From: a bacterium
Lineage (GTDB): Bacteria; Patescibacteriota; JABMPQ01; JBDRIV01
Reading direction: 5' to 3'
Assembly: GCA_043815505.1 (NCBI GenBank)
Contig: JBDRIV010000002.1
Location: 11,484-75,483 of the forward strand
DNA: 64,000 bases
Made by a program: the position numbers and the translations under genes
Shown: positions 1 to 50,749 of the stretch, one piece after another
How positions within the stretch are numbered: position 1 is the stretch's first letter
Layout: each line of letters opens with the position of its first letter
The notes under the pieces: model-generated
The model's input: the letters and a program-made list of their open reading frames with translations, nothing else
Database searches by the model: none
What the model was told of the DNA's origin: nothing

Positions 1-830
1 TGGATTTGGAAACGGATAATTATTTCTAATTATCTCTTTGTGTCGCCACTCCCGTGACGCTTTTAACTTAAGCGAATCGGGATCCCAACTATTGTTGGGA
101 AAAGTTCGGACTATATCTTCCCTAGCTCAGTTTTAAAACTGAGGTCGAGTTCGGCATATAGTCTCTGAGGGTTTTTATAAAACAATCTTATTTCTGCGCC
201 GCTTTCCTTTTTGATTCATTTGATAAGCAAGTTTTAAAATTTGTTTAATGCCCTGGTTGTTTAAATGCTTTTTCTTATGAATAAGCTCAACAATTTGAGC
301 AAAGATCTTAAAATTTTGCCGTTTCTCTGTCAGAAGTTTATACCTACTGAAAAAAGGAATTATTTTATTGCGCAAATCCTCATGATTACGTACAACATAT
401 ACAAATGTTTTGTCCCGCTTGTTTAAACGATGATTGCACTTTATGTAGCCACAATCAAGTTTTTTTGTAAGCGCTTCAAGCACGTTTTTGCTATTTTGAT
501 GTTGACTGATATGGAATTCCGGAATTATCTTAATCTTTTGTTTCATATATGAATCTCGATAGATTGCAATATGAAAGCTTCCTTCCCCATCAGTTAACCC
601 AGCAATATAGTGAGGATTAATTTTCATAATTGATTGTTTATAAATCTTCCCTGCTGATTGTCTGCACTCAACACATTGTCACCTATTATTATAATAGGTA
701 GTGTGAGATTCTTCAACCCTCTATTCTCTATTAGGGTACAGAGTTTCCAGCATTTAGCCGAATTTATTGACAGCACGGTCGATAAATCTATTATGATTTC
801 TCTTTATTAAACGAAAAGATATTGAATTTA
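1..830 (-). mobile_element. 23S intron 1 (group-I-like), partial; follows exon sequence GAGACAGU (domain V, near E. coli ~2593); 3' splice site lies beyond the window start
   Basis: The exon match ends at plus 831-838 (actgtctc). No downstream exon sequence (UCGGUCCCUAUC) is found before position 1. Contains the LAGLIDADG ORF 175..627. Confidence 0.6.
175..627 (-). CDS. LAGLIDADG homing endonuclease, single-motif I-CreI-like type, intron-encoded
   Basis: N-terminal motif IAGLTDGEGSF in a 150-aa protein; located inside a 23S rRNA insertion. Confidence 0.8.
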   Translation of the reverse strand: MKINPHYIAGLTDGEGSFHIAIYRDSYMKQKIKIIPEFHISQHQNSKNVLEALTKKLDCGYIKCNHRLNKRDKTFVYVVRNHEDLRNKIIPFFSRYKLLTEKRQNFKIFAQIVELIHKKKHLNNQGIKQILKLAYQMNQKGKRRRNKIVL

Positions 831-838
831 CTGTCTCG

Positions 839-873
<35 letters not shown>

Positions 874-907
874 TGGCGAACAGCCAAACCCTTGGGAGCT
901 TCTTCAC

Positions 908-944
<37 letters not shown>

Positions 945-1120
945 AGCGCCGTCTATGTGAACTATTGGGCGCTATAAGCCTGTTATCCCCGGAGTAACTT
1001 TTATCCGATGGTCTTCCGCGATCCTACGATCAAAACAATTTCTATTATTCGCCTATGTCCCTATAAAAATAGAAACATAAACGAAATAGAAAGAGTTCTT
1101 TACGGTCGGTTCTCTAAATT

Positions 1121-1151
<31 letters not shown>

Positions 1152-1554
1152 TGCAGTAAAGCAAGCTTGTGCTTTTACACTATCGGTCCGATTTCCATCC
1201 GGACCTAGCTTACCTTGAAACGCCTCCGTTACTTTTTAGGAGGCAACCACCCCAGTTAAACTACCCACCAGACACTGTTTTCATTTCCTGATTCAAGGAA
1301 ACGAGTTAGCTATAAAACATTATTAAGCTGGTATCTCACTGATGACTCCTTTTGAGCTAGCGCTCAAAAATCAAAGTCTCCCAGCTATGCTGAATAAACA
1401 AAGCTTTACAGCAATGTCAAGCTGTAGTAAAGCTTCACGGGGTCTTTTCGTCTTGCTATAGGTGAACGGTATCTTTACCGCTATTACAATTTCACCGAAT
1501 CCTTCGTTGGAGACAGTCTTCAAGTCGTTATGCCATTCGTGCGGGTCGGAACTT

Positions 1555-2299
1555 CATGTTACCGATCGTTTTCACGATGGATCAGACTATATCTTCACCT
1601 TATTTAGAATACTTAGGAGTTTTGCAATTGGATGTTTTCTTTTTCCGCTTTCATTCATTTGGTAGGCCAAAGTTATTATTTGGCGCAAATGTTTAGTGTT
1701 GCGATGCTTGTTTTGTTTTACTAAGTCGCAGATTTTATAAAAGATTATAAAATCTTGTTTCTTAGAAGTTTGTAAACCAAACTTTTTGAAGTGCGGTATG
1801 ATTTTGTTGTTTAAATCAACAATTGATCTTACCTCATATTTGTAGCTCTGATCTTTTTTAGAAAATCTGATACTACCACAACCGAAGTATTTCTTTATTT
1901 TCTGCAAAATGTCTAAACTGCGACGATTTTGAGAAATTGAAAAACTTGGTCGAACTTCAATTTTGGTTTTCAATTTAGCACGCAAGCTAAATGATACGGT
2001 GAAACATCCTTCGCCATCTACAAATCCTGTTATGTATGATGCAAAATCCATATATTCCTTCGTTTTAATAAGGGCTGACGTATTTTCCATCTTATAAGGA
2101 CGGAACTTGTCTTTCGACTCAGTCGTTACGGGTTCCCAATTTATGGGATTCCCACGGTATTATCATATCGTATTCCAATTTTTTTGAAAAATGAAATGCG
2201 TTTTAGACTTCACCGTTATTAGTCAGTTTGCTTATATCGCATTACTGCGATATTCGGGCAAGTTTGCCTCGCTTAAACGAGGTCCAACCATTAAGTATT
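1555..2299 (-). mobile_element. 23S intron 2 (group-I-like) at the L1931-type site: GGGU | AAGUUCCGACC
   Basis: Exon sequence CGAAATTCCTTGTCGGGT maps to plus 2300-2317 and AAGTTCCGACCCGCACGAATGG to plus <=1554. The upstream exon ends in U and the intron ends in ...AACATG. Confidence 0.65.
1587..2090 (-). CDS. LAGLIDADG homing endonuclease, intron-encoded
   Basis: Motif ITGFVDGEGCFTVSF in a 167-aa protein, inside 23S intron 2. Confidence 0.8.
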   Translation of the reverse strand: MENTSALIKTKEYMDFASYITGFVDGEGCFTVSFSLRAKLKTKIEVRPSFSISQNRRSLDILQKIKKYFGCGSIRFSKKDQSYKYEVRSIVDLNNKIIPHFKKFGLQTSKKQDFIIFYKICDLVKQNKHRNTKHLRQIITLAYQMNESGKRKHPIAKLLSILNKVKI

Positions 2300-2319
2300 A
2301 CCCGACAAGGAATTTCGCT

Positions 2320-3033
2320 CATGTTTTGTTACTATCCCATTTTTTGGGACGGTTAAACATTTCTGCTTAACTCTCTATGTCGCCATAGAGTTCGGACTAT
2401 ATCTTTCCAGCTCCAGTTTTTTGAAACTGGGGCGGGACTTGGCGTGTAGTCTCTGAGGATTGCAAATATCTTGATGGCTTTTTACGATTCATGGTTTCAA
2501 TTATTCCAGCGATTTTTCTAACACCTTTTGATGTTAGATGTTCCCCTCTTTTTATTATTACAACTACTTTTACAAATTTATTAAAATCTTCTGATTTTGC
2601 AGTTTGTAAGCAGTTCTTTTTAAAGAAAGGAATTATCACTTCTGTTAAATCTTTTAAAGATCTAATACAAAAGCGATATAAATCTTCTTTGTGATTATCA
2701 TGTCGGCGATTTATGTAAAGTTTTCCACACCCGAAGAATTTTTGAATTCTTTTTAGTGCTGGTAAACTTTTGGCGCCTTGTGTTATCACAAATTCTGGGA
2801 ATATTTGCCAACCAGAACTCGTTGTTGGATTCTTATTAATACTTACAGAGAAGGTTCCTTCTCCATCAGTGAATCCTACTATCCATCCTATTTGCCTTTC
2901 CTGCTGATTGTCTGCACCGAGTTGATTTTTACTTGGCATATTGTTCATAATCTATGGAACATTTATACCATAGTACAATCGGATTCTCCAGATTTTCCAG
3001 CATTTGGTCAAGTTTTACTATGGCAGCTTTCCT
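2320..3033 (-). mobile_element. 23S intron 3 (group-I-like) at the L1923-type site: CCUAUGGU | AGCGAAAUUCC; separated from intron 2 by a ~20-nt mini-exon (2300-2319)
   Basis: Exon CGCCGGCAGTAACTATAACTGTCCTATGGT ends at plus 3034. The intron ends in ...AACATG, the same as intron 2. The 3' regions of introns 1 and 3 share a ~70-nt block (plus 105-175 vs 2388-2462). Confidence 0.65.
2397..2948 (-). CDS. LAGLIDADG homing endonuclease, intron-encoded; C-terminus overlaps a family-A palindrome
   Basis: Motif IVGFTDGEGTFSVSI in a 183-aa protein. The C-terminal residues ...QFQKTGAGKI are encoded by the palindrome ccagctccagttttttgaaactggggcggg. Confidence 0.8.
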   Translation of the reverse strand: MNNMPSKNQLGADNQQERQIGWIVGFTDGEGTFSVSINKNPTTSSGWQIFPEFVITQGAKSLPALKRIQKFFGCGKLYINRRHDNHKEDLYRFCIRSLKDLTEVIIPFFKKNCLQTAKSEDFNKFVKVVVIIKRGEHLTSKGVRKIAGIIETMNRKKPSRYLQSSETTRQVPPQFQKTGAGKI

Positions 3034-4324
3034 ACCATAGGACAGTTATAGTTACTGCCGGCGTTCATCCGCGCTTCAGAAGAGAGCTTGCACCCTCTTC
3101 ATTAACGTTCGGACACTGGCCAGGCATCAGCCCCTATACATCCTCTTACGAGTTAGCAGGGACCTATGTTTTTGGTAAACAGTCGCTTGAAGTCAGTCGC
3201 TGCGCCCTGAAGCAAAGTAGTAAACTACCCTTTTCCAGGGAGGCCTTATTCCAAAGTTACGGCCGCTGTTTTGCCGAGTTCCTTAACGAAGGTTCTTTCG
3301 ATCACCTTGGTATGCTAGTACCCACCTACCTGTGTTGGTTTACGGTACGGATCCGTTTTAACTAATCTTAGAGGTTTTTCTCGTCAGCTTGGATCAGTAG
3401 AATTGTCTAACTTTAGGAAAGACTTCTCACGTTCTTCGGATAAACGACTGCCCGGATTTACCAAAGCAATCTGCCTAATGAATATGAACGCCTATTACCA
3501 AAAGACGCTCTACCTACCATGCCGCGTTACCCCATCGAATTAAAACGAAGCGCCAGAATATTAACTGGCTTCCCATCATCTACCCCAGCACTACACTGGG
3601 CTCGACTTAGGACCGGCTAACCCTAGGATGATCAACATTGCCTAGGAAACCTGAGGTTTACGGTGTTCTGGGTTCTCACCAGAATTTTTGTTACTCATGC
3701 CAACATTCTCTCTTCTCTTCGCTCCATCTAATGGCTTCCGCCTAGACTTCACTGCGAAGAGAATGCTCCTCTACCACGTATATCAAAAGATATACATCCG
3801 TGTCTTCGGTAATATGCTTGAGCCCCGTTATATTTTCGGCGCGGAAACTCTCGACTAGTGAGCTGTTACGCACTCTTTAAATGAATGGCTGCTTCTAAGC
3901 CAACATCCTAGTTGTTTGAGAACTTCTACAACCTTTCCCACTGAGCATATATTTTGGGACCTTAGACGACGGTCTGGGCTGTTTCCCTTTCGACTATGAA
4001 GCTTAGCCCTCACAGTCTGACTCCCATGCAATAACTTTTCTGTATTCGGAGTTTGTTTGAAGGCAGTAGGATAAATCCATCTGTCTTCAACCAGTGCTCT
4101 ACCCCAGAAAAGATAAACATGAGGCTAGCCCTAAAGCTATTTCGAGGAGAACCAGCTATTTCCAGGTTCGGTTGGTTTTTCGCCCCTAACCACAGCTCAT
4201 CCGCTCGCGTTACACGACGAGTCGGTGCGGACCTCCACTTCGTATTACCGAAGCTTCATCCTGACCATGGCTAGCTCACCTGGTTTCGGGTCTGTTCCCT
4301 GAGACTTAGGGGGGTTAACCCCTG

Positions 4325-4425
4325 CCCAGCCCCAGTTTTATTGAACTCGGAATTTTGGAATTCGATAATGCTCAAATGATTCATTGAACATTAAAGATAT
4401 TGAGTTCAGCAAAACTGGGGCTAGG
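4325..4425. repeat. Family-A palindromic element (long form, ~100 bp) inserted in 23S domain II just 5' of GACCCGAAACC
   Basis: cccagccccagtttt ... gaactcgg ... ttgagttcagc ... aaaactggggctagg, with nested inverted repeats. Confidence 0.75.
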
Positions 4426-4513
4426 TCTCGCTTTCACTACGGCTCCGTCTAATAAAGACTTAGCCTTGCCACAGAGAATAACTCGTTGGCTCGTTCTGCA
4501 AAAAGCACGCGGT

Positions 4514-4622
4514 CACCCCGCTCCAGTTTTATAGAACTCGGAATTTAAAAATTCGATTATGCTAATAAGCAATTTATTAAGCTTAAAGCATTTTGAGTTC
4601 TGCAAAACAGGGGCGGGGCTCC
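4514..4622. repeat. Family-A palindromic element (long form), second copy inside 23S
   Basis: caccccgctccagtttt ... gaactcgg ... ttgagttctgc ... aaaacaggggcggggct; internal core similar to the 4325-4425 copy. Confidence 0.75.
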
Positions 4623-4676
4623 CACTCCATGTAAGTGTATGGTTTCAGATACTATTTCATCTCCCTTAACGGGATA

Positions 4677-4713
<37 letters not shown>

Positions 4714-5171
4714 ATCACAAAGAGTATTTAGTCTTGGGAGAGTAGTTCTCCCAGCTTCCTACGGAATTCCACTCACTCCGTAGTACTTAAGAATAAAACC
4801 GTAAAGTTATAACAGATTTTCGAATACAGGACTATTACCTTCTTTGGTGGACCTTTCCAGGTCACTTCTTCTAATCAATATTATTTCTTTACCTCTTGTT
4901 TGTAGCCAAGAACATTTTATCTTGCAACACCCTATTTACAACGCCTACAAGCTTGAACATAAATAAGGTTTGGACTGATCCCGTTTCGCTCGCCGCTACT
5001 AAGGGAATAATTAGCTTGTAGCAAATGGCATAGGGCAAATAGTAAACTATAAGCCATTAGCCATAAGCTATAAGCAGTTTGATTTCTTTTCCTCCGGTTA
5101 CTAAGATGTTTCAGTTCACCGGGTTGTCTTCCAACATCCTATGAATTCAGATGCGGATCCCAGCTCCACTT

Positions 5172-5435
5172 TTAGCAATCAATTTTGCTGTGTTCTAATC
5201 TCTTTTTTAATTCATGAATAGAACTCCCATGACTTTTAAGTCTTTTTTCTCTGACAATCGCATCTTTTTTGTTACGATATGCTTCAGCATAAACCAAAAT
5301 CCATTTTTCACTCTTTCTCTTTGTAGAATGAACTTGATTTTTATTATGTTCAGAGAATCTTTTCTTAAGATTTTTTGTAATTCCAACATAAAATCTTTTG
5401 TCCCCAGAATGTTGAAGTAAATAAACAATAAACAT
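5172..5435 (-). CDS. GIY-YIG nuclease-domain protein (UPF0213/YhbQ-like, 87 aa) embedded in a variable helix of the 23S 5' domain
   Basis: Motifs YLLQ...KRFYVGITKNLKKRFSEHN match the GIY-YIG signature. The ORF sits between the 23S blocks CCGAATGGGCAAACCCC and GGTGAACTGAAACATCT, where E. coli has only ~60 nt. Confidence 0.6.
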   Translation of the reverse strand: MFIVYLLQHSGDKRFYVGITKNLKKRFSEHNKNQVHSTKRKSEKWILVYAEAYRNKKDAIVREKRLKSHGSSIHELKKRLEHSKIDC

Positions 5436-6410
5436 TCTTTGGTATTAATGACTAAAAGTGGGGCTGGGGGGTTTGCCCATTCGGAGATCCTCGGATCAAG
5501 GGTTGTTTGACACCTCCCCGAGGCTTATCGCAGACTACCACGTCCTTCATCGGCTCTTTGTGTCTAGGCATTCACCATACACTCTTACCTCTTAGGTTGA
5601 TAAGATTAACTAGCTATATGTATTGATATTCAATTGTGTAAAGTCCTATCATTTGTTTTCACATTGTTGAAGTTTTTAAAACTGCAATTATCTGAAAGCA
5701 AATGGGCAACTAAAAAACCGCTCGTCGCGGCTCAATTTACACAAGGAATTATGCGTTCTAAAAGGCCGCCTAAATATGAGTAGTTAATGATCTTTTTTTC
5801 ATACGATTTTCCTTATATATTTAGATGTTTATCTGGTACTACGACTCTTTGTAGTACTGAGTTTATCGTATGAGTAGTGTACTTATAATTTAAAATGTTG
5901 TCAAGGAACAACTTTTACGCGGTGTGGACTTCCTGTGTAAAAGTGGAACATTTAGGCTTAGAATAAGAAAAAGATTAGTTTGACAATATGTTTATTTAAG
6001 CATATTCTTAATAGATTTGTGGTATTGTAATATTAGGAGGATTTGTACATTAACATTTTTGTTTGTTCTAAAAATGGGCGTAACTAATTGTGGAGGAATA
6101 AGGAAACGATAAAAAAGAAATGATATTTTCAAAAAAACAGAAAATACTACTTAGGAGAATGTTAATGAAAAAATCTACAGAATCAAATTCATTGAAGCCA
6201 GATATTATTTCAGGAGCAATTTGTAAACAACTTCCCCCAATCTGTTATGAAAGCGAAACCAAAAAGAGGGAAAGAGTAACCCAGTCTTTTAATATTCAAA
6301 GATGGTATAACGATCTTTTTGGTTTTCCCAAAGATGGTTCAATTTCAATTAGGCGGTAGAGATGTATTGTGGCTACAGTATCATGAAATTAAAACCAAAG
6401 GAGGTGAGTT

Positions 6411-6605
6411 TTGTCACAGGTCGCCGGAGTTTCAATATTTGATCTATCCATTCAACAATGTAAGGAGGAATTCTGTTCAGCATGTCTGCAATTGGCAGAG
6501 CAATCAGATATATTTCAAGCTGACATTTTAGCCAGGGCTTGCTCACTTTTCCATATTCAGGAGAAACCGAGGTGCGAAACTTGCCCCCGACAGCTATTTC
6601 TCTAA
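6411..6605 (+). CDS. Small Cys-rich hypothetical protein (64 aa, TTG start)
   Basis: SD aaggagg 8 nt upstream of TTG; Cys pairs CKEEFCSAC and CETCP; terminator-like hairpin aaaaatccc...gggattttt at ~6612-6652. Confidence 0.3.
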   Translation: MSQVAGVSIFDLSIQQCKEEFCSACLQLAEQSDIFQADILARACSLFHIQEKPRCETCPRQLFL

Positions 6606-6672
6606 CGAAATAAAAAATCCCAACTCGACTAAGCATTACGAGAAGGGATTTTTAAAAGATAACCACTACATA

Positions 6673-6882
6673 TTATTTTGATTCTTCGTCCAAACAATTA
6701 GGGCAGAAGTCTTGACCATCTTTGTTTTTCAGATGATCATTTATTGTGATTCGTTTACAACCATTACATCTTTTTCCCATACCGCGTATCAAAAGGGTAA
6801 GATTAATTGCACAACAATCATTATTCCATGGGTTGGCTCTAGATTGCAGTTTATCATTTGCAGTGGACTGGTTAAATGTCAT
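6673..6882 (-). CDS. Small HNH endonuclease-like protein (69 aa)
   Basis: CNGC ... NDHLKNKDG ... CPNC matches the HNH arrangement CxxC-DH-N-CxxC; lies in the rRNA spacer. Confidence 0.5.
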   Translation of the reverse strand: MTFNQSTANDKLQSRANPWNNDCCAINLTLLIRGMGKRCNGCKRITINDHLKNKDGQDFCPNCLDEESK

Positions 6883-6898
6883 TTTCTTTTCTCCAGGT

Positions 6899-7204
6899 TC
6901 AATAAGCTAATTTGGATCCTCTTTGTCTGCCAGTAGAGTATCCGACGTAATAATATGGGCTTTGGTTTTTCTTGGCTCGGGTTGAGCCGGGACCGTGTTG
7001 ATTGCCCTTTTTCCAATCCTTCAGGGCTTGTTCATATTCTTCTGGCGGGGCAAGTACGGGACATTTTTCACTAAGGTCTGGCTGGCCAGGAAATACATTG
7101 TCAACATGATTATTGTTTTTTCTTCCGCAATAACCGCATCTTGAATTATCGCGGCTGCCAAACATTCTTTCTCTTTCGTGTGTTGATAGTGGATCAAATA
7201 CCAT
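6899..7204 (-). CDS. Cys-containing hypothetical protein, possibly HNH-like (101 aa)
   Basis: CGYCGRKNNNHVDN...C motif pattern; weak. Confidence 0.3.
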   Translation of the reverse strand: MVFDPLSTHERERMFGSRDNSRCGYCGRKNNNHVDNVFPGQPDLSEKCPVLAPPEEYEQALKDWKKGNQHGPGSTRAKKNQSPYYYVGYSTGRQRGSKLAY

Positions 7205-7427
7205 TGTTCTTTTCTCCCAGGGTTTTATTGTAAAATGATCGGAGCGTGCTTAAGGTGCTAATATTATTTTCTAGTTTTAAGGTATCATAAAACATTTTAT
7301 GGGGGAAGTGATTTTAGTTATCCTACCAAAAAATCGCCCATTTGGCGATTACTTGTTTTTCGTTGTAAAAAATGGCATCTCGTGTGAGATGCCCGTGAAG
7401 TGAGGTGCAACTTGCAACTTTGCTCCC

Positions 7428-7571
7428 TTAATCTTTGCCGTAATAATTGCGATATGCATCTGCATCTGTGCCCCGAGGCCAACAGTTGAAGGATTTTTTC
7501 TTTCCCTTGTCAGGTAGAATAGATATTAGTACAACAACACCGACAAATCCTGCTAGCACCAAAAGTATCAT
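7428..7571 (-). CDS. Small membrane protein (47 aa); not in the ORF track
   Basis: SD ggaggg 6 nt upstream of ATG; hydrophobic MILLVLAGFVGVVVLISIL; terminator-like hairpin at ~7318-7350 on the minus strand. Confidence 0.3.
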   Translation of the reverse strand: MILLVLAGFVGVVVLISILPDKGKKKSFNCWPRGTDADAYRNYYGKD

Positions 7572-7789
7572 TTTTGTCCCTCCCATAAAAGAGTGCATAG
7601 CTTGATCTGATAAACCTCAATCAGATCCTAATTTATTAGTATCATAAATATTTTTTAAGTTAAAAAAGTATGATATTTTATTATACTTTCTATTAGCGAT
7701 TGTCTTGACAAAATAGTCATTAGGTAGTACAAAGAAGTGAGATAAATTGTCCTTGTAAAATGTATGCGAATCGCTACGAGAGGTGAATT

Positions 7790-8089
7790 ATGAAGAAGCT
7801 GTTTTCGTTCCTTTGGATTATCTGTTCAATAGTGGCAGTGTGGTTTGTTTGGGACTATTTCGGCTGGGTAGCCGGAGTAGTCGCTATTGTGGCGGTTCTA
7901 TTAATGAACAACATTTTGTTCGAAAGGAAAGAAAAAACTACGCCCAGGACAACAAGATTGACAAACGAAGACGATTATCCATCGTTTCCGTACGACGGAG
8001 GACCAGCAAGTTCTCACAACTCATCTACTTATGGTATGTATGATGGCGGTGATCAATCATCAGGACATCAAGATTACACAGCCGGTTGA
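7790..8089 (+). CDS. Small membrane protein with a low-complexity G/S/Y-rich tail
   Basis: N-terminal TM segments; candidate promoter TTGACA (7705-7710) - 17 nt - TACAAA; followed by a terminator. Confidence 0.45.
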   Translation: MKKLFSFLWIICSIVAVWFVWDYFGWVAGVVAIVAVLLMNNILFERKEKTTPRTTRLTNEDDYPSFPYDGGPASSHNSSTYGMYDGGDQSSGHQDYTAG

Positions 8090-8105
8090 ATAATTGATAT
8101 TTAGA

Positions 8106-8145
8106 CAAAACGGCCATCGGTTTTCCATCCGATGGCTTTTTTCTT
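8106..8145 (+). terminator. Rho-independent terminator
   Basis: ggccatcggttttccatccgatggcc hairpin followed by a T-run. Confidence 0.6.
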
Positions 8146-8443
8146 TCTGTAATTTTGGTGGACCGTAGGAGAGTCGAATCCGCCGGTCGGCAGACAGACC
8201 TTCTTTCAAAACAAATTTAAAATCTCTCTGGACCGCAGGGGGATCATCTACCCGCGACTACGTTTTGGGCGTGGCCAGCTTGCCCGCGGATGCGGGACGC
8301 AGCCAGGAGGAACTCACCTTTTAAACATTTTTCATGGACTCGAGGAGAATCTCACCTAGAGAGTGACCAGCCTTTGGGCGGGAACTCCTTTTTCTTTCTT
8401 TAAAATCTTATGGACCTGGCCGGATTCGAACCGGCTTTTATAA

Positions 8444-8776
8444 TTATTTTTCTAAATTTTCAACTTTTTCAAGGAATTTTTCCAACACTGTTTTTGCTAA
8501 CTCTCTATCTTTGCCGGCACTTGCTTCCATTTCTGCCCAATAACATTGATCTTGTAATTCAGGAGTTAAACTATCGTAGTCAATTTTTCCTGAACGCTCA
8601 AGAAGTTCTTTAATAGAAGCGTCAATTTTTTCAATATCTTCAGGCGAGAGATTGCTTGTTTCACTAAGACCATAATCTATTCTTCTTTGACGTGTCATTT
8701 CTCTTGCTTCTTCAGGAGTTGTAATTTTTCTTTCCAATTTTTCGGGATCTACTCCCATTTGTTCTGGTGATGTCAT
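8444..8776 (-). CDS. Acidic hypothetical protein (110 aa) located in the 16S-23S spacer
   Basis: ORF only; no clear SD. Confidence 0.3.
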   Translation of the reverse strand: MTSPEQMGVDPEKLERKITTPEEAREMTRQRRIDYGLSETSNLSPEDIEKIDASIKELLERSGKIDYDSLTPELQDQCYWAEMEASAGKDRELAKTVLEKFLEKVENLEK

Positions 8777-8929
8777 ATGTTGAATCTAAGTACTAAATCT
8801 TTTATTGACTAAGAGTCAGAATCGCTTACCCAGTCGTGCTGTGCGCGACTGTGGAAATCGCCTTATAAACATTTTAAACTCCTGGACTCAGAGCGAGAAT
8901 AAGAACTCCTTTTTAAAACATTTTGCCTC

Positions 8930-9003
8930 TGGACCCGGCCGGATTCGAACCGGCGGCCCCCTGCTTGCAAAGCAGGTGCTCTAGCCAACTGAGCTACGGG
9001 CCC
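8930..9003 (-). tRNA. tRNA-Ala(TGC)
   Basis: Reverse complement GGGCCCGTAGCTCAGTTGG...CTTTGCAAG...GGTTCGAATCC...CGGGTCCA has a G3:U70 pair and anticodon TGC. Confidence 0.9.
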
Positions 9004-9206
9004 AAAGGCAAAATGTTTTAAACCCCCTGGTCTTGCAAACAGTTTAATTTTCTATTGAAAATTAAACTGGGGGGTGCGTCTGCGGTTGAGCTACGAGCCC
9101 ATGGAAAAATGATTATAACTCCTGCAGTGTGACTTTGCTAAGGGCTGTTGGCAAATTGCAAATGGAAAACGTTAATTGCTATTAGCCACTCGCTATAAGC
9201 CAAATG

Positions 9207-9464
9207 CTACTGCAGTGTGGTGGAGCCAGGAAGAACACTGGACACACAACCACCGATCATTCTTTCCAACAAACCAAACATAAATAAAAATGAAAACATT
9301 ATTAGCAGTCCCCCAATTAATCTGATGGCGACTCTGGTGCCACCAAACATGCCAAGATATTTTTCTAACGTGGCGGACTGACCAACTAAGTTATAAATTT
9401 GTTCGCCCCATTTTATCATGGCGGCGCCAATTAGAATGCCAATAATTCCCCAAACTATTCTCAT
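9207..9464 (-). CDS. Small membrane protein (85 aa) between tRNA-Ile and tRNA-Ala; preceded directly by family-D element copy A
   Basis: Two to three hydrophobic segments; GAAGAG upstream of the ATG. Confidence 0.35.
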   Translation of the reverse strand: MRIVWGIIGILIGAAMIKWGEQIYNLVGQSATLEKYLGMFGGTRVAIRLIGGLLIMFSFLFMFGLLERMIGGCVSSVLPGSTTLQ

Positions 9465-9589
9465 GTCGTCGTAACAACTCTTCAGCTTTCGTCCCGCTTA
9501 GCGGGACTTCACCCTGCGAGTTGTTTCTCCTCTCAATTTAAACGCGTGCTCACTCCGCGTTGCGGGGTTGCACTCCTCGTTTAAATTGC
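9465..9589 (-). ncRNA. Family-D structured element, copy A (~125 nt)
   Basis: Minus-strand stem CAATTTAAACG/CGTTTAAATTG, then GAGAGGAGAAACAA and a 3' block CTGAAGAGTTGTTACGACG. The stem covaries in copies B and C. Confidence 0.45.
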
Positions 9590-9693
9590 AACTAATAATA
9601 CTTTATAAATTCCCCAGTGGGTGACCTGAAGATTTTCAGCCAGAGGCTGATCCGCCTTTGGCGGAGAACCTCGTCACTTAATACATCTCTCAG

Positions 9694-9767
9694 TGGGCGA
9701 TCGAGGATTTGAACCTCGGACCTCGTCATTATCAGTGACGCGCTCTAACCAACTGAGCTAATCGCCC
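9694..9767 (-). tRNA. tRNA-Ile(GAT)
   Basis: Reverse complement GGGCGATTAGCTCAGTTGGTTAGAGCGCGTCACTGATAATGACGAGGTCCGAGGTTCAAATCCTCGATCGCCCA. Confidence 0.9.
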
Positions 9768-9798
9768 ACTGAGAGATTTATCTTTTTATTATACATTA

Positions 9799-10026
9799 GG
9801 ATGATCACCCGTAGGGTGAGAATCTCGGACCTCGTCTCGTCCAAACAATACTTCAGTCTTCGCAATCCAACAAGTTGAATTGCTTCGACTTACGTATTGT
9901 TTCTCCTCTCCGATTAAAAACGTGCTCGTTCACTACGTTCACTGCGCACCATTTTTAATCGGTAACTGTTAAGTGACGCGCCTGCCTGCCGGCAGGCAGG
10001 CTCTAACCAACTGAGCAAACGTTGCC
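9799..10026 (-). pseudogene. tRNA-Ile-like paralog interrupted by a 19-nt GC hairpin in the D region and by family-D element copy B (9838-9962) in the anticodon loop
   Basis: 5' part GGCAACGTTTGCTCAGTTGGTTAGAGC[CTGCCTGCCGGCAGGCAGG]CGCGTCACTTAACAG... then the 125-nt element ... GACGAGGTCCGAG; T-arm region degenerate. Confidence 0.45.
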
Positions 10027-10146
10027 TAGGGCTAATAGCAAATAGCAAATGGCACTAAAATATAATTGCAATTAGCTATAAGCCATTCGCCATTCGCCAA
10101 CTAGTTTACCATTTACAAAGCCACTTTTCAAGAAAAAATTATGACA

Positions 10147-10205
10147 AACCCCGCCCCACCCCACTCCAGTTCTAATTAAAAACTGGGGCTGGGTGGAGCG
10201 GGGTT
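10147..10205. repeat. Family-A palindrome (short form) between the 16S 3' end and the tRNA-Ile paralog
   Basis: aaccccgccccaccccactccagttctaattaaaaactggggctgggtggagcggggtt. Confidence 0.7.
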
Positions 10206-10445
10206 ATCTTTTGACATTTAAATAGTGATAGGAGCAGATTGACATGTCATGAATGAATTCATGAAAGTCGACCTTCGGGTATGCTTGCTTATTAAACAAG
10301 CGGATATTCCCTAGAAAGGAGGTGATCCATCCACAGCTTCCGCTACGGATGCCTTGTTACGACTTTGCCCCTCTCGCTGGGCCCACCTTCGGTCCTAGAA
10401 CTAGGAACTTCGGGTGTTCCCAACTCGCTTGACATGACGGGCGGT

Positions 10446-11371
10446 ATCGAGATCCAAATTGGTCTCACACCACTGGGCAAACGGTTTTACCGTACCCTAG
10501 CGGTTCCACGAATATTATTCAGCTTGCGAATTTTATTTCGCAAAGAAACAATTTTTTTAAATCCAACATCGGTTAGATGCTGTTTGGATTTAATTAACAT
10601 AACTGCTTCACAAAATAATTCATAAACCAAACGCTTTTTAGCTCTCAACTTGTAACGGTTGAAGAAGGGAATTATTTTTTCACTCAAATCATTTATATTG
10701 CTCACTTTATATTTGACATGCGGATGCCATTTATAACGAGCATAATTTAAGCGATAGATATTTCCGCAACCAAAAGCATTTTTAATTTGGTTTAGGATTT
10801 CTTCATCATCGGCGCGGAGTTCTATTTCAAACTCTGCCCTAACTTCTTGTCGGCGTTTCAAGGTTTGATGTTTGCTGATACTAATACAGAAACATCCTTC
10901 CCCGTCAACGAAACCGACAATATATTCGGGATGAAGATTATTATTTTCGTGGTTCGGTCCTTTTCCCGCTCCAGTTTGTTTTAAACTGGGGCTGGATACT
11001 ACGACCTCTGCTGACTTCTTGTATTGCATCGTCATAATATTGCTATTATGTCTTAATTCTCGTGGGGTTTGCACCCCGAGGTTATTATACCTCAAAACAA
11101 GAATACAATACAAGATCTCCCTGGGTCACCTTATAAACCGTTCTTTCTCATCTCGGCTTTCCTGCACTTTAGTTTCCAAATTTACAGAAGACTTCCCTAC
11201 GTACACGAAAGGTCGTCGTTGAAACTAAAGCCTAAACGAAAGCTCAAGCTAAGAAATGCTACTTTTACCCTTGTTCCCAAACCTCACGATTTGGGACTGT
11301 AATTTCGCTTCCCAGTTTCTGCAAACTGGGGTGTGATTTTAACACACTGGTTTATAAAATTGCCAGGCGCA
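10446..11371 (-). mobile_element. 16S intron (group-I-like) inserted within CUUGUACAC / ACCGCCCGUCA (E. coli ~1395-1400)
   Basis: Exon matches stop at plus 11372 (gtgtacaag) and resume at plus 10445 (gacatgacgggcggt). Contains a LAGLIDADG ORF. The exact splice junction is ambiguous by +/-3 nt. Confidence 0.6.
10487..11113 (-). CDS. LAGLIDADG homing endonuclease, encoded in the 16S intron
   Basis: Motif IVGFVDGEGCFCISI in a 208-aa protein. Family-A palindrome cccgctccagtttgttttaaactggggctgg lies in-frame at 10958-10994 and encodes KQTGAGKG. Confidence 0.8.
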   Translation of the reverse strand: MYCILVLRYNNLGVQTPRELRHNSNIMTMQYKKSAEVVVSSPSLKQTGAGKGPNHENNNLHPEYIVGFVDGEGCFCISISKHQTLKRRQEVRAEFEIELRADDEEILNQIKNAFGCGNIYRLNYARYKWHPHVKYKVSNINDLSEKIIPFFNRYKLRAKKRLVYELFCEAVMLIKSKQHLTDVGFKKIVSLRNKIRKLNNIRGTARVR

Positions 11372-11520
11372 AGTGTACAAGACCCGAGAACGTATTCACC
11401 GCGCTATAGCTGACGCGCGGTTACTAGCGATTCCAACTTCATGAGGGCGAATTGCAGCCCTCAATCCGAACTGAGACTGGGTTTGATGAGATTAGCTTCA
11501 TCTTGCGATTTCGCAACTCA

Positions 11521-11552
<32 letters not shown>

Positions 11553-11567
11553 GAGGCGTCAAAGGGT

Positions 11568-11601
<34 letters not shown>

Positions 11602-11673
11602 ACTGTACGCCGGCAGTCTCTTGTGAAAAATACAACACAAGATAAGGGTTGCGCTCGTTTCCGGACTTAACCG

Positions 11674-11708
<35 letters not shown>

Positions 11709-11795
11709 ACACCTGATCCATAAGTTCCTTGCGGCACTTCTTGGTTTCCCAAAAATTCCTATGAAGTCAAGCCTCGGTAAGGTTCTTCGTTTATT

Positions 11796-11854
<59 letters not shown>

Positions 11855-12284
11855 TAGTCTTGCGACCGTACTCCCCAGGCGGAATACTTAACGCGTTAGC
11901 TTCGGCACTAAAAGGGTCGAATCTCCTAGTGCCTAGTATTCATCGTTTACAGCGTGGACTACTGGGGTATCTAATCCCATTCGCTCCCCACGCTTTCGTC
12001 CTTGAGTGTCGGAATACAGCTAGCAGACTGCCTTCGCTATTGGTGTTCTTCCCGATATTAACGCATTTCACTACTACACCGGGAATTCCATCTGCCTCTC
12101 TGTTTCCCTAGTCTGGCAGTTTTCGAAACGAGCTTTAGGTTAGGCCTAAAGATTTAATTCCAAACTTACCAAACGACCTGCGGACGCTTTACGCCCAATG
12201 ATTCCGGATAACGCTTGCCACCCTCGTATTACCGCGGCTGCTGGCACGAGGTTAGCCGTGGCTTATTCCAATGGTACCGTCAAC

Positions 12285-12346
12285 CCAGCTTCAGTTTGGA
12301 ATCAAATCAAAAAAGAATTCAGTTTTGATTACAAACTGAGGCTGGG
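12285..12346. repeat. Family-A-like palindrome inserted in the 16S V3 region
   Basis: cccagcttcagtttgg...ttacaaactgaggctggg, between the 16S blocks ...ACGGTACCATTGG and the 515 region. Confidence 0.65.
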
Positions 12347-12725
12347 CTTCTTCCCAAAGAAAAGCAATTTACACCCCGAAGGGCTTCTTCTTGCACGCGG
12401 CGTCGCTCCGTCACGCTTTCGCGCATTGCGGAAGATTCTCGACTGCAGCCTCCCGTAGGAGTTCGGGCAGTGTCTCAGTCCCGATGTGACTGGTCGTCCT
12501 CTCGAACCAGCTACCCATCATCGTCTTGGTAGGCCATTACCCTACCAACTAACTAATGGGATGTAGGCCCCTCTCAAAGCGATCGAAATCTTTGGTCCGT
12601 AGACCACATGAGGTATTAGACCACCTTTCGGTGGATTATTCCTCACTTTGAGTTAGGTTCCAACATGTTACTCACCCGTCTGCCACTCTTCACCGAAGTG
12701 AAGCGTACGACTTGCATGCCTAAAA

Positions 12726-12764
<39 letters not shown>

Positions 12765-13059
12765 TAAAAATATTTAGTCTAGATGACTAAATCAATTGTT
12801 GGGTATATAATCTTGTACGATTATATGAAGTGGACAAAATGCCACTCATTTTAGTGGATCTGTCCTATCACTATTTAATTGTCAAAAGGTCAAAAAAATA
12901 CGTTTGTTTACGTACTAGCGATTTTAGTGTATATCCAAATATTTGTCAAGAAATAAAGATACCCACACCTGTGTATAGATAATTTGCCTTATTTTAGATA
13001 AAAAACCAAGTACGCGTACACTTGGCAAAATATTTTAATTTTCGAAGAATTTATTAAAA

Positions 13060-23295: not shown

Positions 23296-23397
23296 TCCCC
23301 GCTTCAGTTTTTTAGAACTCGACACAATATAGTTATGTAATTCTAGAAGTAATTTTAAACTTAAAGAATTTGAGTTCAACAAAACTGAGGCGGGGTT
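23296..23397. repeat. Family-A palindromic element (long form) downstream of rpsP; likely acts as a terminator
   Basis: atccccgcttcagttttt ... gaactcgac ... ttgagttcaac ... aaaactgaggcggggttttt. Confidence 0.75.
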
Positions 23398-33710: not shown

Positions 33711-33814
33711 AACCCCGCTCCAGTTTTATTTAACTCAGAATATTGTTCATTAATGTTGGGAAATTTGTTATAAAAAACATTAATGATTTGAGTTCAATAG
33801 AACTGGAGCGGGGC
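33711..33814. repeat. Family-A palindromic element (long form) upstream of pilB
   Basis: aaccccgctccagtttt ... aactcagaa ... ttgagttcaat ... aactggagcggggcg. Confidence 0.75.
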
Positions 33815-39938: not shown

Positions 39939-39974
39939 CTCCCCAGCTCCAGTTTTGCGAAAACTGGGGCTGAG
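39939..39974. repeat. Family-A palindrome (short form)
   Basis: ccccagctccagttttgcgaaaactggggctgag. Confidence 0.7.
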
Positions 39975-50640: not shown

Positions 50641-50749
50641 AAACCCCGCCCCAGTTTTGCAAAACTCAAAAAATCAAAATTTAATTATGCTAAAAAGCAA
50701 TTTCTAAGCTTAAAGCATCTGAGTTCAATAAAGCTGGAGCGGGGTTTTT
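50641..50749. repeat. Family-A palindromic element (long form) downstream of the ferredoxin gene
   Basis: aaaccccgccccagtttt ... aactcaaaa ... tgagttcaat ... aagctggagcggggttttt. Confidence 0.75.

Follow-up and report, generated by a model that had tools for sequence, protein, structure and literature searches.

A probable intervening-sequence-type hairpin cassette with a minimal GIY-YIG nuclease gene at helix 9 of a Patescibacteria 23S rRNA

The 23S rRNA gene in a 64,000-nucleotide stretch of bacterial DNA (contig JBDRIV010000002.1; hereafter the window, whose positions are used throughout) harbors a 310-bp unit that is bounded by inverted repeats, encodes an 87-amino-acid GIY-YIG nuclease domain and stands where helix 9 (H9) would be expected. 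We assign a probability of roughly 0.7 to the interpretation that this unit, at 5159-5468, is not an intron but a hairpin cassette of the intervening sequence (IVS) type, which replaces 23S helix 9 and carries a single minimal GIY-YIG gene of the SLX1/YhbQ type. The cassette is the member with an open reading frame (ORF) in a multi-copy family of hairpin repeats in this genome. By analogy with characterized IVSs it is probably excised by RNase III, and a role of the nuclease in mobility is speculative. The parts of the cassette, with the evidence for each, are listed here.

5159-5468, minus strand: whole cassette, 310 bp, bounded by inverted repeats, in place of 23S helix 9 (E. coli 131-148); Rfam alignment, inverted repeat and minimum free energy (MFE) fold
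5452-5468, minus strand: 5′ terminal repeat arm, CCCAGCCCCACUUUUAG on the RNA strand, with an interrupted extension to 5444; inverted-repeat search
5436-5451, minus strand: 16-nt leader, UCAUUAAUACCAAAGA, between the 5′ arm and the ATG; sequence reading
5172-5435, minus strand: GIY-YIG nuclease ORF, 87 amino acids, ATG start; ORF and Pfam
5159-5175, minus strand: 3′ terminal repeat arm, CUAAAAGUGGAGCUGGG on the RNA strand, extending to 5183 and overlapping the end of the ORF; inverted-repeat search

When the gene is aligned with the Rfam covariance model, 298 nt take the place of the 8-nt loop of the hairpin at positions 131-150 of the large-subunit (LSU) model, and the rest of the aligned rRNA is collinear. 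The hairpin is flanked on one side by ...CCGAAUGGGCAAACCC and on the other by the H10/H11 block ...GGUGAACUGAAACAUCU, and direct alignment to E. coli rrlH identifies it as helix 9 (E. coli 131-148), the tip of which is one of three IVS sites listed in PMC4990558. Because the rRNA flanks resume exactly at the start and end of H9 (AAACCC / cassette / AUCCGC...), the cassette replaces the entire native hairpin. An initial annotation had placed the ORF inside the 5′ domain of 23S rRNA at a site not known as an intron site, which agrees with our mapping; its figure of about 260 nt for the insert was too low, as the insert measures 298 nt (about 300) and 264 nt is the length of the ORF alone. Helix 9 is uninterrupted in E. 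coli and at L055 and L013 (L numbers denote related loci in other genomes, described below), and the insert that L018 has in its H9-H10 region is unrelated. The possibility that the outer CCCAGC/GCUGGG pairs of the stem are native helix 9 was rejected, since the same outer sequence is present in copies outside rRNA in the window and at L117, L102 and L112.

The arms of the inverted repeat (I2; 5159-5183 and 5444-5468) are 25 nt long and 84% complementary, and the MFE fold (-92.6 kcal/mol, z = -5.5) has a closing stem of 6+11+6 bp, or about 23 bp. The ORF lies on the rRNA-sense strand and takes up 264 nt of the unit, leaving only about 46 nt of non-coding sequence. Its ATG is 16 nt past the 5′ arm, and its TAA stop codon (5172-5174) falls within the 3′ repeat arm. 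The leader has no strong Shine-Dalgarno sequence, and a search of the sense strand of the cassette, a weak test for an organism of the candidate phyla radiation (CPR), found no sigma-70-like promoter.

Judged from its sequence and predicted fold, the ORF is best described as a genuine GIY-YIG gene of the YhbQ/UPF0213-SLX1 type. The Pfam GIY-YIG model (PF01541) matches residues 2-71 with an E-value of 7.9e-17 and 61.8 bits against a cut-off of 22.6, which bears out the 87-residue ORF annotated at 5172-5435, and the clean GIY-YIG signature noted at the outset is also present, with Y5, Y16, G18, R26, H30 and E63 invariant or at least 90% conserved among 10 homologues. The initial assignment as YhbQ/UPF0213-like stands as well: searched against PDB sequences, the family profile finds the UPF0213 protein BH0048 (1zg2) at 1.7e-12, EF2693 (1ywl) at 7e-8, SLX1 entries at 1e-7 to 6e-5, and I-TevI at only 1.2e-3. 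The NCBIfam intron-endonuclease model scores 19.6 bits, under its cut-off of 56. An AlphaFold2 (AF2) model has a predicted local distance difference test (pLDDT) score of 80, the element order E-E-H-E-H-H and a GIY-YIG fold, and its top Foldseek matches are all GIY-YIG domains (1zg2, 1ywl, SLX1, I-TevI and UvrC), with UPF0213 and SLX1 the best; probabilities are 0.96-1.0 for the first seven matches, and E-values are weak for so small a domain. Both Pfam and the AF2 model indicate that the protein consists of the catalytic domain only, with no DNA-binding module.

The 87-residue ORF is not a chance ORF, and homologous ORFs are under purifying selection: the ratio of nonsynonymous to synonymous substitution rates (dN/dS) is 0.03-0.19 in seven informative pairs of related cassettes, including two paralogues at one locus. 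A profile search of 1.84 billion cluster representatives recovered 26,175 relatives (clusters at 50% identity) at E ≤ 1e-3 and 6,033 at E ≤ 1e-10, mostly of 80-125 amino acids. Viral contigs yielded only 22 weak relatives, one of them a reasonable match, and on this basis a phage origin was rejected. The window itself holds only one GIY-YIG gene.

The cassette termini are far more numerous than the nuclease gene. Allowing at most two mismatches, we count 21 occurrences of the 15-nt terminal motif CCCAGCNCCASTTTT in the window where 0.78 would be expected; none of 100 shuffled sequences contained as many. Most occurrences are convergent pairs. The motif takes the form CCCAGCnCCA(G/C)TTTT, and in the ORF-less family CCC(A/C)GCnCCAGTTTT, with hairpin termini CCCMGCNCCASTTTT. 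In addition to the one ORF-bearing copy, the window contains at least 11 ORF-less hairpins of 32-103 nt, located in 23S, in 16S, in intron-like inserts and in intergenic regions, among them the following.

4516-4618, minus strand: ORF-less 103-nt hairpin with termini CCCCGCCCCUGUUUU...AAAACUGGAGCGGGG as in the cassette, at the tip of 23S helix 25
4325-4425, minus strand: ORF-less 101-nt hairpin with cassette termini, in 23S at about E. coli 636
12284-12346, minus strand: 63-nt hairpin in the 16S helix-17 region with related termini, CCCAGCCUCAGUUUG..., each arm differing from the motif at two positions
23297-23395, unstranded: intergenic ORF-less hairpin, 9 nt past a gene end and followed by a T-run
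33713-33813, unstranded: intergenic ORF-less hairpin
45044-45140, unstranded: intergenic ORF-less hairpin, 16 nt past a gene end
50644-50744, unstranded: intergenic ORF-less hairpin
39942-39974, unstranded: minimal 33-nt hairpin, nothing more than the two terminal repeats with a 3-nt loop between them
2406-2437, 10159-10193 and 10964-10996: similar minimal hairpins (minimal class, 32-35 nt)

Most of these copies have in common a C.A mismatch at stem position 7. The cassette and the copies of about 100 nt share only their outer 15 nt or so, and the inner arms of the latter differ. Because the intergenic copies lie just past gene ends and are followed by T-runs, they may double as terminators. 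The 16S helix-17 (h17) site that holds the hairpin at 12284-12346 in the window is occupied by a GIY-YIG cassette at L079 and L152. We also observed a near-perfect hairpin of about 63 nt just downstream of the 16S 3′ end (10146-10208, minus strand; -47.8 kcal/mol, z = -7.9), in which one terminal-repeat stem is apparently nested in another: CCCCGCUCCA[CCCAGCCCCAG...CUGGAGUGGGG]UGGGGCGGGG.

The same association of ORF-bearing and ORF-less copies is seen in other genomes. L114 has one cassette and two ORF-less hairpins, all with CCCCGTTAGAAA, and L117 has two intact paralogous cassettes and a 133-nt ORF-less hairpin in 23S, all with CCCAGCACTAACTTTGG. The L117 cassettes (1466-1765 and 2010-2309) are 300 bp each, lie 245 bp apart upstream of 23S and have a dN/dS of 0.14, and the hairpin (2881-3013) has the same 17-nt termini and is located inside 23S after E. 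coli 270. Thus the termini of ORF-bearing and ORF-less copies match within a genome and differ between genomes. In the window, L114 and L117 alike, inverted termini are common to ORF-bearing and ORF-less copies at several sites, as is typical of a family resembling miniature inverted-repeat transposable elements (MITEs).

Scans of genome and metagenome contigs identified 160 further loci, mostly from Patescibacteria, and 162 loci were classified in all by their genomic context.

Inside rRNA: 19 loci
tRNA or tmRNA gene within 300 nt: 51 loci
Beside another stable RNA (RNase P RNA in a Balneola metagenome-assembled genome (MAG), L014; spacer upstream of 23S): 2 loci
Other: 90 loci

Hence 72 of the 162 loci (44%) are in or beside stable-RNA genes, and all 72 are co-oriented with the RNA gene, including every rRNA-embedded copy. 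For tRNA and tmRNA genes no more than 300 nt from a family ORF (51 loci), 64 are on the same strand and none on the opposite strand; beyond 300 nt, the counts are 14 versus 13. Relatives occupy at least six different rRNA sites as well as tRNA, tmRNA (L003, L042, L043 and L053) and RNase P flanks. The rRNA sites of relatives are 23S H63, 23S H25 (E. coli 540/619), 16S 452/480 (h17), 16S after 1408 (h44) and 16S V1-V2. The three closest proteins (58-64% identity) are encoded in inserts of 285-293 nt that occupy the tip of 23S helix 63 (LSU model 1750-1775, E. coli 1704/1770), lie on the rRNA strand and are closed by perfect repeats of 16-20 bp.

Several features of these loci deserve separate mention. 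At 14 loci (for example L081, L088, L116, L122 and L147) the ORF enters the downstream tRNA gene by 10-47 nt and its stop codon is inside the tRNA; in five of them the stop is formed by the conserved tRNA positions U8-A9-G10 (TAG). Copies abutting tRNAs mostly lack flanking inverted repeats. An internal stop codon within the protein-aligning region was found in seven of 161 copies (L015, L055, L065, L097, L141, L144 and L146), which look like decaying copies; at L055, in 23S H25, the inverted repeats persist in spite of the stop.

Flanking inverted repeats scoring at least 12 are present at 78 of 161 loci, compared with six of 477 cross-locus controls. The C-rich arm is always 5′, with the consensus, read from the outside in, (A/T)CCC(C)..CAC.. 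followed by A/T-rich sequence. One arm subfamily, CCCAGCAC..., is found in H63 (L002, L010, L018, L091 and L094-L096), in H9 (the window) and upstream of 23S (L117), and also in contexts outside rRNA (L102, L112 and L062). A second, CCCTCCCAA.TTTTTGG, occurs in H63 and beside tRNAs, and the arm CCCCACACCTAATC is joined to at least three unrelated flanks. The nearest protein relatives of the window ORF have arms of the CCCAGC type. Because arms are near-identical between cassettes whose synonymous sites are saturated (dS), the arm sequence itself is conserved, and not just its complementarity. On these sequence comparisons, the stem belongs to the element and not to the rRNA.

The host is a deep-branching CPR/Patescibacteria MAG. 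The next-best database proteins to the IF-2 encoded in the window are only about 50% identical, those with names being from Patescibacteria/CPR, and the rRNA genes show the CPR hallmarks described by Tsurumaki et al. 2024 (PMC11270868). Rfam places the rRNA operon on the minus strand of the window in the order 16S, tRNA-Ile, tRNA-Ala and 23S, the last with its 5′ end at 5598.

783-5598, minus strand: host 23S rRNA gene (Rfam LSU and E. coli comparison); the part 3′ of E. coli 2604 is outside the left edge of the window

Because the 3′ exon after E. coli 2604 is outside the window, the "full-length" 23S call made by Rfam (model 1-2925, ending at 783) is forced. Large 23S inserts beside E. coli 2604, ~1952 and ~1931, which are typical CPR intron sites, each contain an ORF matching LAGLIDADG_1 (175-627, 1587-2090 and 2397-2948, minus strand). 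The 16S gene, which Rfam called as uninterrupted at 11296-12771, is broken after E. coli ~1397 by an insert of about 970 nt (~10400-11372, minus strand) with a LAGLIDADG_1 ORF (10487-11113) and an Rfam group-II-D1D4-1 match (10957-11055), and its 3′ end (E. coli 1486-1541) continues at 10371-10316. The 16S-23S spacer (in the region 5600-11300) is of unusual length, spanning some 4.7 kb when measured from the 16S 3′ end, and contains tRNA-Ile, tRNA-Ala and several ORFs of 85-110 amino acids; the two spacer ORFs that were scanned (6899-7204 and 8444-8776) have no Pfam match. A 71-nt insert in 23S (5009-5078, minus strand; Rfam model 226-231) with short direct repeats GCTTATAGCTTATGGCTAATGGCTTATAG is unrelated to the hairpin family.

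The initial annotation left two explanations for the insert, of which a new intron position is by far the harder to sustain. In favor of a self-splicing intron of group I or group II that encodes a GIY-YIG homing endonuclease, I-TevI and similar GIY-YIG enzymes are classical endonucleases of introns, and the same 23S gene has LAGLIDADG-encoding inserts at CPR intron sites. However, we rejected this reading because no Rfam intron covariance model matches 5100-5520, either at the gathering threshold or at E ≤ 10, and the 310-nt unit, with just 46 nt or so of non-coding sequence, has no room for a ribozyme. Moreover, the insert brings its own closing inverted repeats of 17-25 nt and replaces a hairpin tip in a variable region, leaving conserved sequence uninterrupted, and its protein lacks a DNA-binding domain and is nearer to UPF0213/SLX1 than to I-TevI. 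The literature on CPR GIY-YIG inserts likewise classes all of them as non-intron (PMC11270868). An intron is thus highly improbable. The second explanation, a protein-coding expansion segment, comes closer than the intron but misses the canonical IVS site, the published CPR GIY-YIG inserts and the fact that the stem is borne by the element. It would have the 310 nt kept in mature 23S rRNA as an extended surface helix 9, which is consistent with a closing stem coaxial with the H9 position, with intact flanks and with the failure to find an RNase III gene among the ORFs scanned in the 64-kb window. Yet RNase III typically acts on perfect duplexes such as one of about 23 bp, and translation of an ORF locked into an assembled ribosome would be difficult, whereas this ORF is under selection. 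RNase III removes every characterized bacterial insert of such anatomy at H9, H25 and H45 (PMC4990558), and retention therefore seems quite unlikely.

Two further explanations concern the purpose of the gene and the identity of the mobile part. The ORF might be a useful host gene and not a selfish one, a small nuclease for DNA repair or nucleic acid processing that is kept in stable-RNA operons for strong constitutive transcription, with the hairpin serving only as a signal for processing or insulation. Such a function would fit the purifying selection (dN/dS 0.03-0.19), the very large family (26,175 clusters at E ≤ 1e-3), its rarity in viral contigs, the strict co-orientation with tRNA, tmRNA and rRNA genes (64 to 0) and the 14 loci in which the ORF ends inside a downstream tRNA. 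Nevertheless, we regard it as unlikely: the distribution is sporadic and involves different rRNA helices in different lineages, there are several paralogous copies and ORF-less derivatives, internal stops occur in seven of 161 copies, and a housekeeping gene is not expected within rRNA helices. Alternatively, the ORF could itself be the mobile part, a structure-specific nuclease gene that homes into the loops of the genome's own hairpins, whether these resemble terminators or repetitive extragenic palindromic (REP) elements and including those at rRNA tips, using the stem arms as short homology. The minimal 32-35-nt hairpins consisting of arms only would then be empty sites, and it is in keeping with this idea that the cassette and the ~100-nt copies have only the outer ~15 nt in common, that SLX1 relatives cut branched or stem-loop DNA (according to PDB titles) and that one hairpin is nested within another at 10146-10208. 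What makes us doubt it is that in other genomes the last codons and stop of the ORF are built into the 3′ arm and that the arm subfamily tracks the protein subfamily across sites, both of which fit arms that travel with the ORF; in addition, homology of about 15-25 bp is short for recombinational repair.

If the interpretation as an IVS-type cassette is correct, the cassette would be transcribed from the rRNA promoter within pre-23S rRNA, and its repeats would pair into a stem of about 23 bp that prolongs the rRNA helix. As the stem would continue the helix, the foreign RNA would be extruded and tolerated. RNase III would then cut out the cassette without re-ligation, as in the IVSs of helices 9, 25 and 45, leaving a 5′ fragment of about 130 nt and the remaining 23S rRNA, and the ORF may be expressed either from the precursor or from the released hairpin RNA. 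It is a more speculative suggestion that the nuclease, which lacks a DNA-binding domain, recognizes a hairpin or cruciform formed by the conserved termini, and that the resulting break allows copies of the cassette, or of its ORF-less derivatives, to enter other hairpin sites. Such cassettes could represent an undescribed class of prokaryotic mobile element of about 300 bp with C-rich/G-rich inverted repeats, in which the nuclease recognizes the termini, MITE-like copies are formed, and the tips and flanks of stable-RNA hairpins are colonized and their promoters used. We offer this broader proposal tentatively, at somewhat less than even odds.

Several observations weigh against the cassette interpretation or its extension to a mobile element. 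A flank pattern with a variable gap, run against metagenome contigs, found no empty H9 site, and for this reason the insertion boundaries rest on the repeat family and not on a comparison of filled and empty sites. None of the 160 related loci is a second GIY-YIG cassette at H9, and inspection of the flanks of about 70 cassettes and of the window hairpins revealed no consistent target-site duplication. The stop codon is in the stem, and RNase III cleavage could therefore truncate the message; the lack of an RNase III gene among the scanned window ORFs, already cited in favor of retention, also counts here. Counted by eye, stem mismatches of the G.U and A.C kinds stand at about 10 to 8; with no excess of G.U, nothing here positively indicates that selection works on the RNA and not on the DNA. 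It may also be that the intergenic ORF-less hairpins are plain terminators with a stem in common. Finally, we know of no prokaryotic GIY-YIG enzyme that acts as a transposase.

IVSs in bacterial rRNA have been known since 1990, and their origin and spread are still unexplained; a mobility function of an IVS ORF has never been testable with the S23p protein. The helix-9 locus offers an insert of the IVS type with a recognizable nuclease under purifying selection, conserved termini and ORF-less sister copies, and it provides a context for the widespread uncharacterized UPF0213/YhbQ mini-nucleases. If the mobile-element proposal is true, it would explain by what mechanism bacterial rRNA IVSs move, long a missing piece, and would give the large UPF0213 family a biological function. 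Our search of open-access full-text literature found nothing that links prokaryotic MITEs or inverted repeats with GIY-YIG genes, and nothing on the function of UPF0213/YhbQ. The findings also suggest that part of the "uncharacterised short insertions" in CPR rRNA genes are members of such hairpin families. A practical consequence is that these inserts break rRNA gene callers, as illustrated by the forced 23S call in the window.

Brown et al. in 2015 reportedly noted GIY-YIG ORFs in rRNA "insertion sequences" of CPR bacteria. According to Tsurumaki et al. 2024 (PMC11270868), CPR GIY-YIG ORFs lie in 15 insertions in 23S and 15 in 16S, and all 30 cases are non-intron, scattered and judged to be "outside the context of homing". 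These inserts come from the same host group as the window cassette, and because they are already published, the helix-9 locus adds one more case, at a canonical IVS site, to a known class. The accessible part of that paper gives counts only, without inverted-repeat termini, ORF-less copies, an SLX1/UPF0213 affinity or an association with tRNA, tmRNA and RNase P genes. Measured against it, the recurring terminal repeat with its ORF-less hairpins, the co-orientation with stable RNAs, the genome-specific shared termini, and the purifying selection together with the UPF0213/SLX1 affinity appear to be additions.

IVSs are stem-loops with inverted repeats at their ends that take the place of the tips of 23S helices 9, 25 and 45; some contain an ORF, and in the studied cases RNase III cuts them out and the rRNA ends are not rejoined (PMC4990558). 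In the window, too, the helix-9 tip is replaced, the termini are complementary and the distribution among compared rRNA genes is sporadic. The ORF-carrying IVSs of Leptospira and Coxiella burnetii, with an S23p ORF in helix 45, are regarded as selfish or possibly mobile (PMC4990558). The cassette resembles them in being a stem-loop of a few hundred nucleotides on a variable 23S helix tip with terminal inverted repeats (the Coxiella stem is 28 bp) and in having on the rRNA strand a single small ORF preceded by a poor ribosome-binding site. However, it encodes a GIY-YIG nuclease in helix 9, whereas theirs is the four-helix-bundle protein S23p in helix 45, and its termini recur in the same genome as a multi-copy repeat family that includes ORF-less members. 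Excision by RNase III has been shown for the Leptospira and Coxiella IVSs and is ascribed to the helix-9 cassette by analogy. The helix-9 IVSs of other bacteria occupy the same rRNA site, likewise with an extended stem-loop in place of the native hairpin, and there cleavage gives a small 5′ fragment of 23S rRNA. To our knowledge those IVSs are short and ORF-less, whereas the window cassette has a conserved nuclease gene and is found in a CPR bacterium.

Among nucleases, I-TevI is of the same catalytic superfamily and is also encoded inside an RNA gene. Unlike I-TevI, which has a linker and a DNA-binding domain, a ribozyme and one conserved target, the cassette protein is a bare 87-residue catalytic domain with no ribozyme around its gene, and its relatives occupy many sites. 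UPF0213/YhbQ and SLX1 are the best profile and fold matches and have in common with the ORF the signature YLLQ...FYVGxT.N..RR..EHN. SLX1 has a RING/PHD domain and the partner SLX4, and UPF0213 has no established function; unlike the cassette gene, neither is known as embedded in rRNA or bounded by inverted repeats. The Correia elements of Neisseria are multi-copy MITEs of about 100-150 bp with terminal inverted repeats, which lie between genes, form long RNA hairpins and may act as terminators or RNase III substrates. We know of no cognate protein for the Correia elements and of no copy in rRNA. Unlike them, the hairpin family described here has copies inside rRNA helices and includes an ORF-bearing version; no consistent target-site duplication was seen next to its arms.

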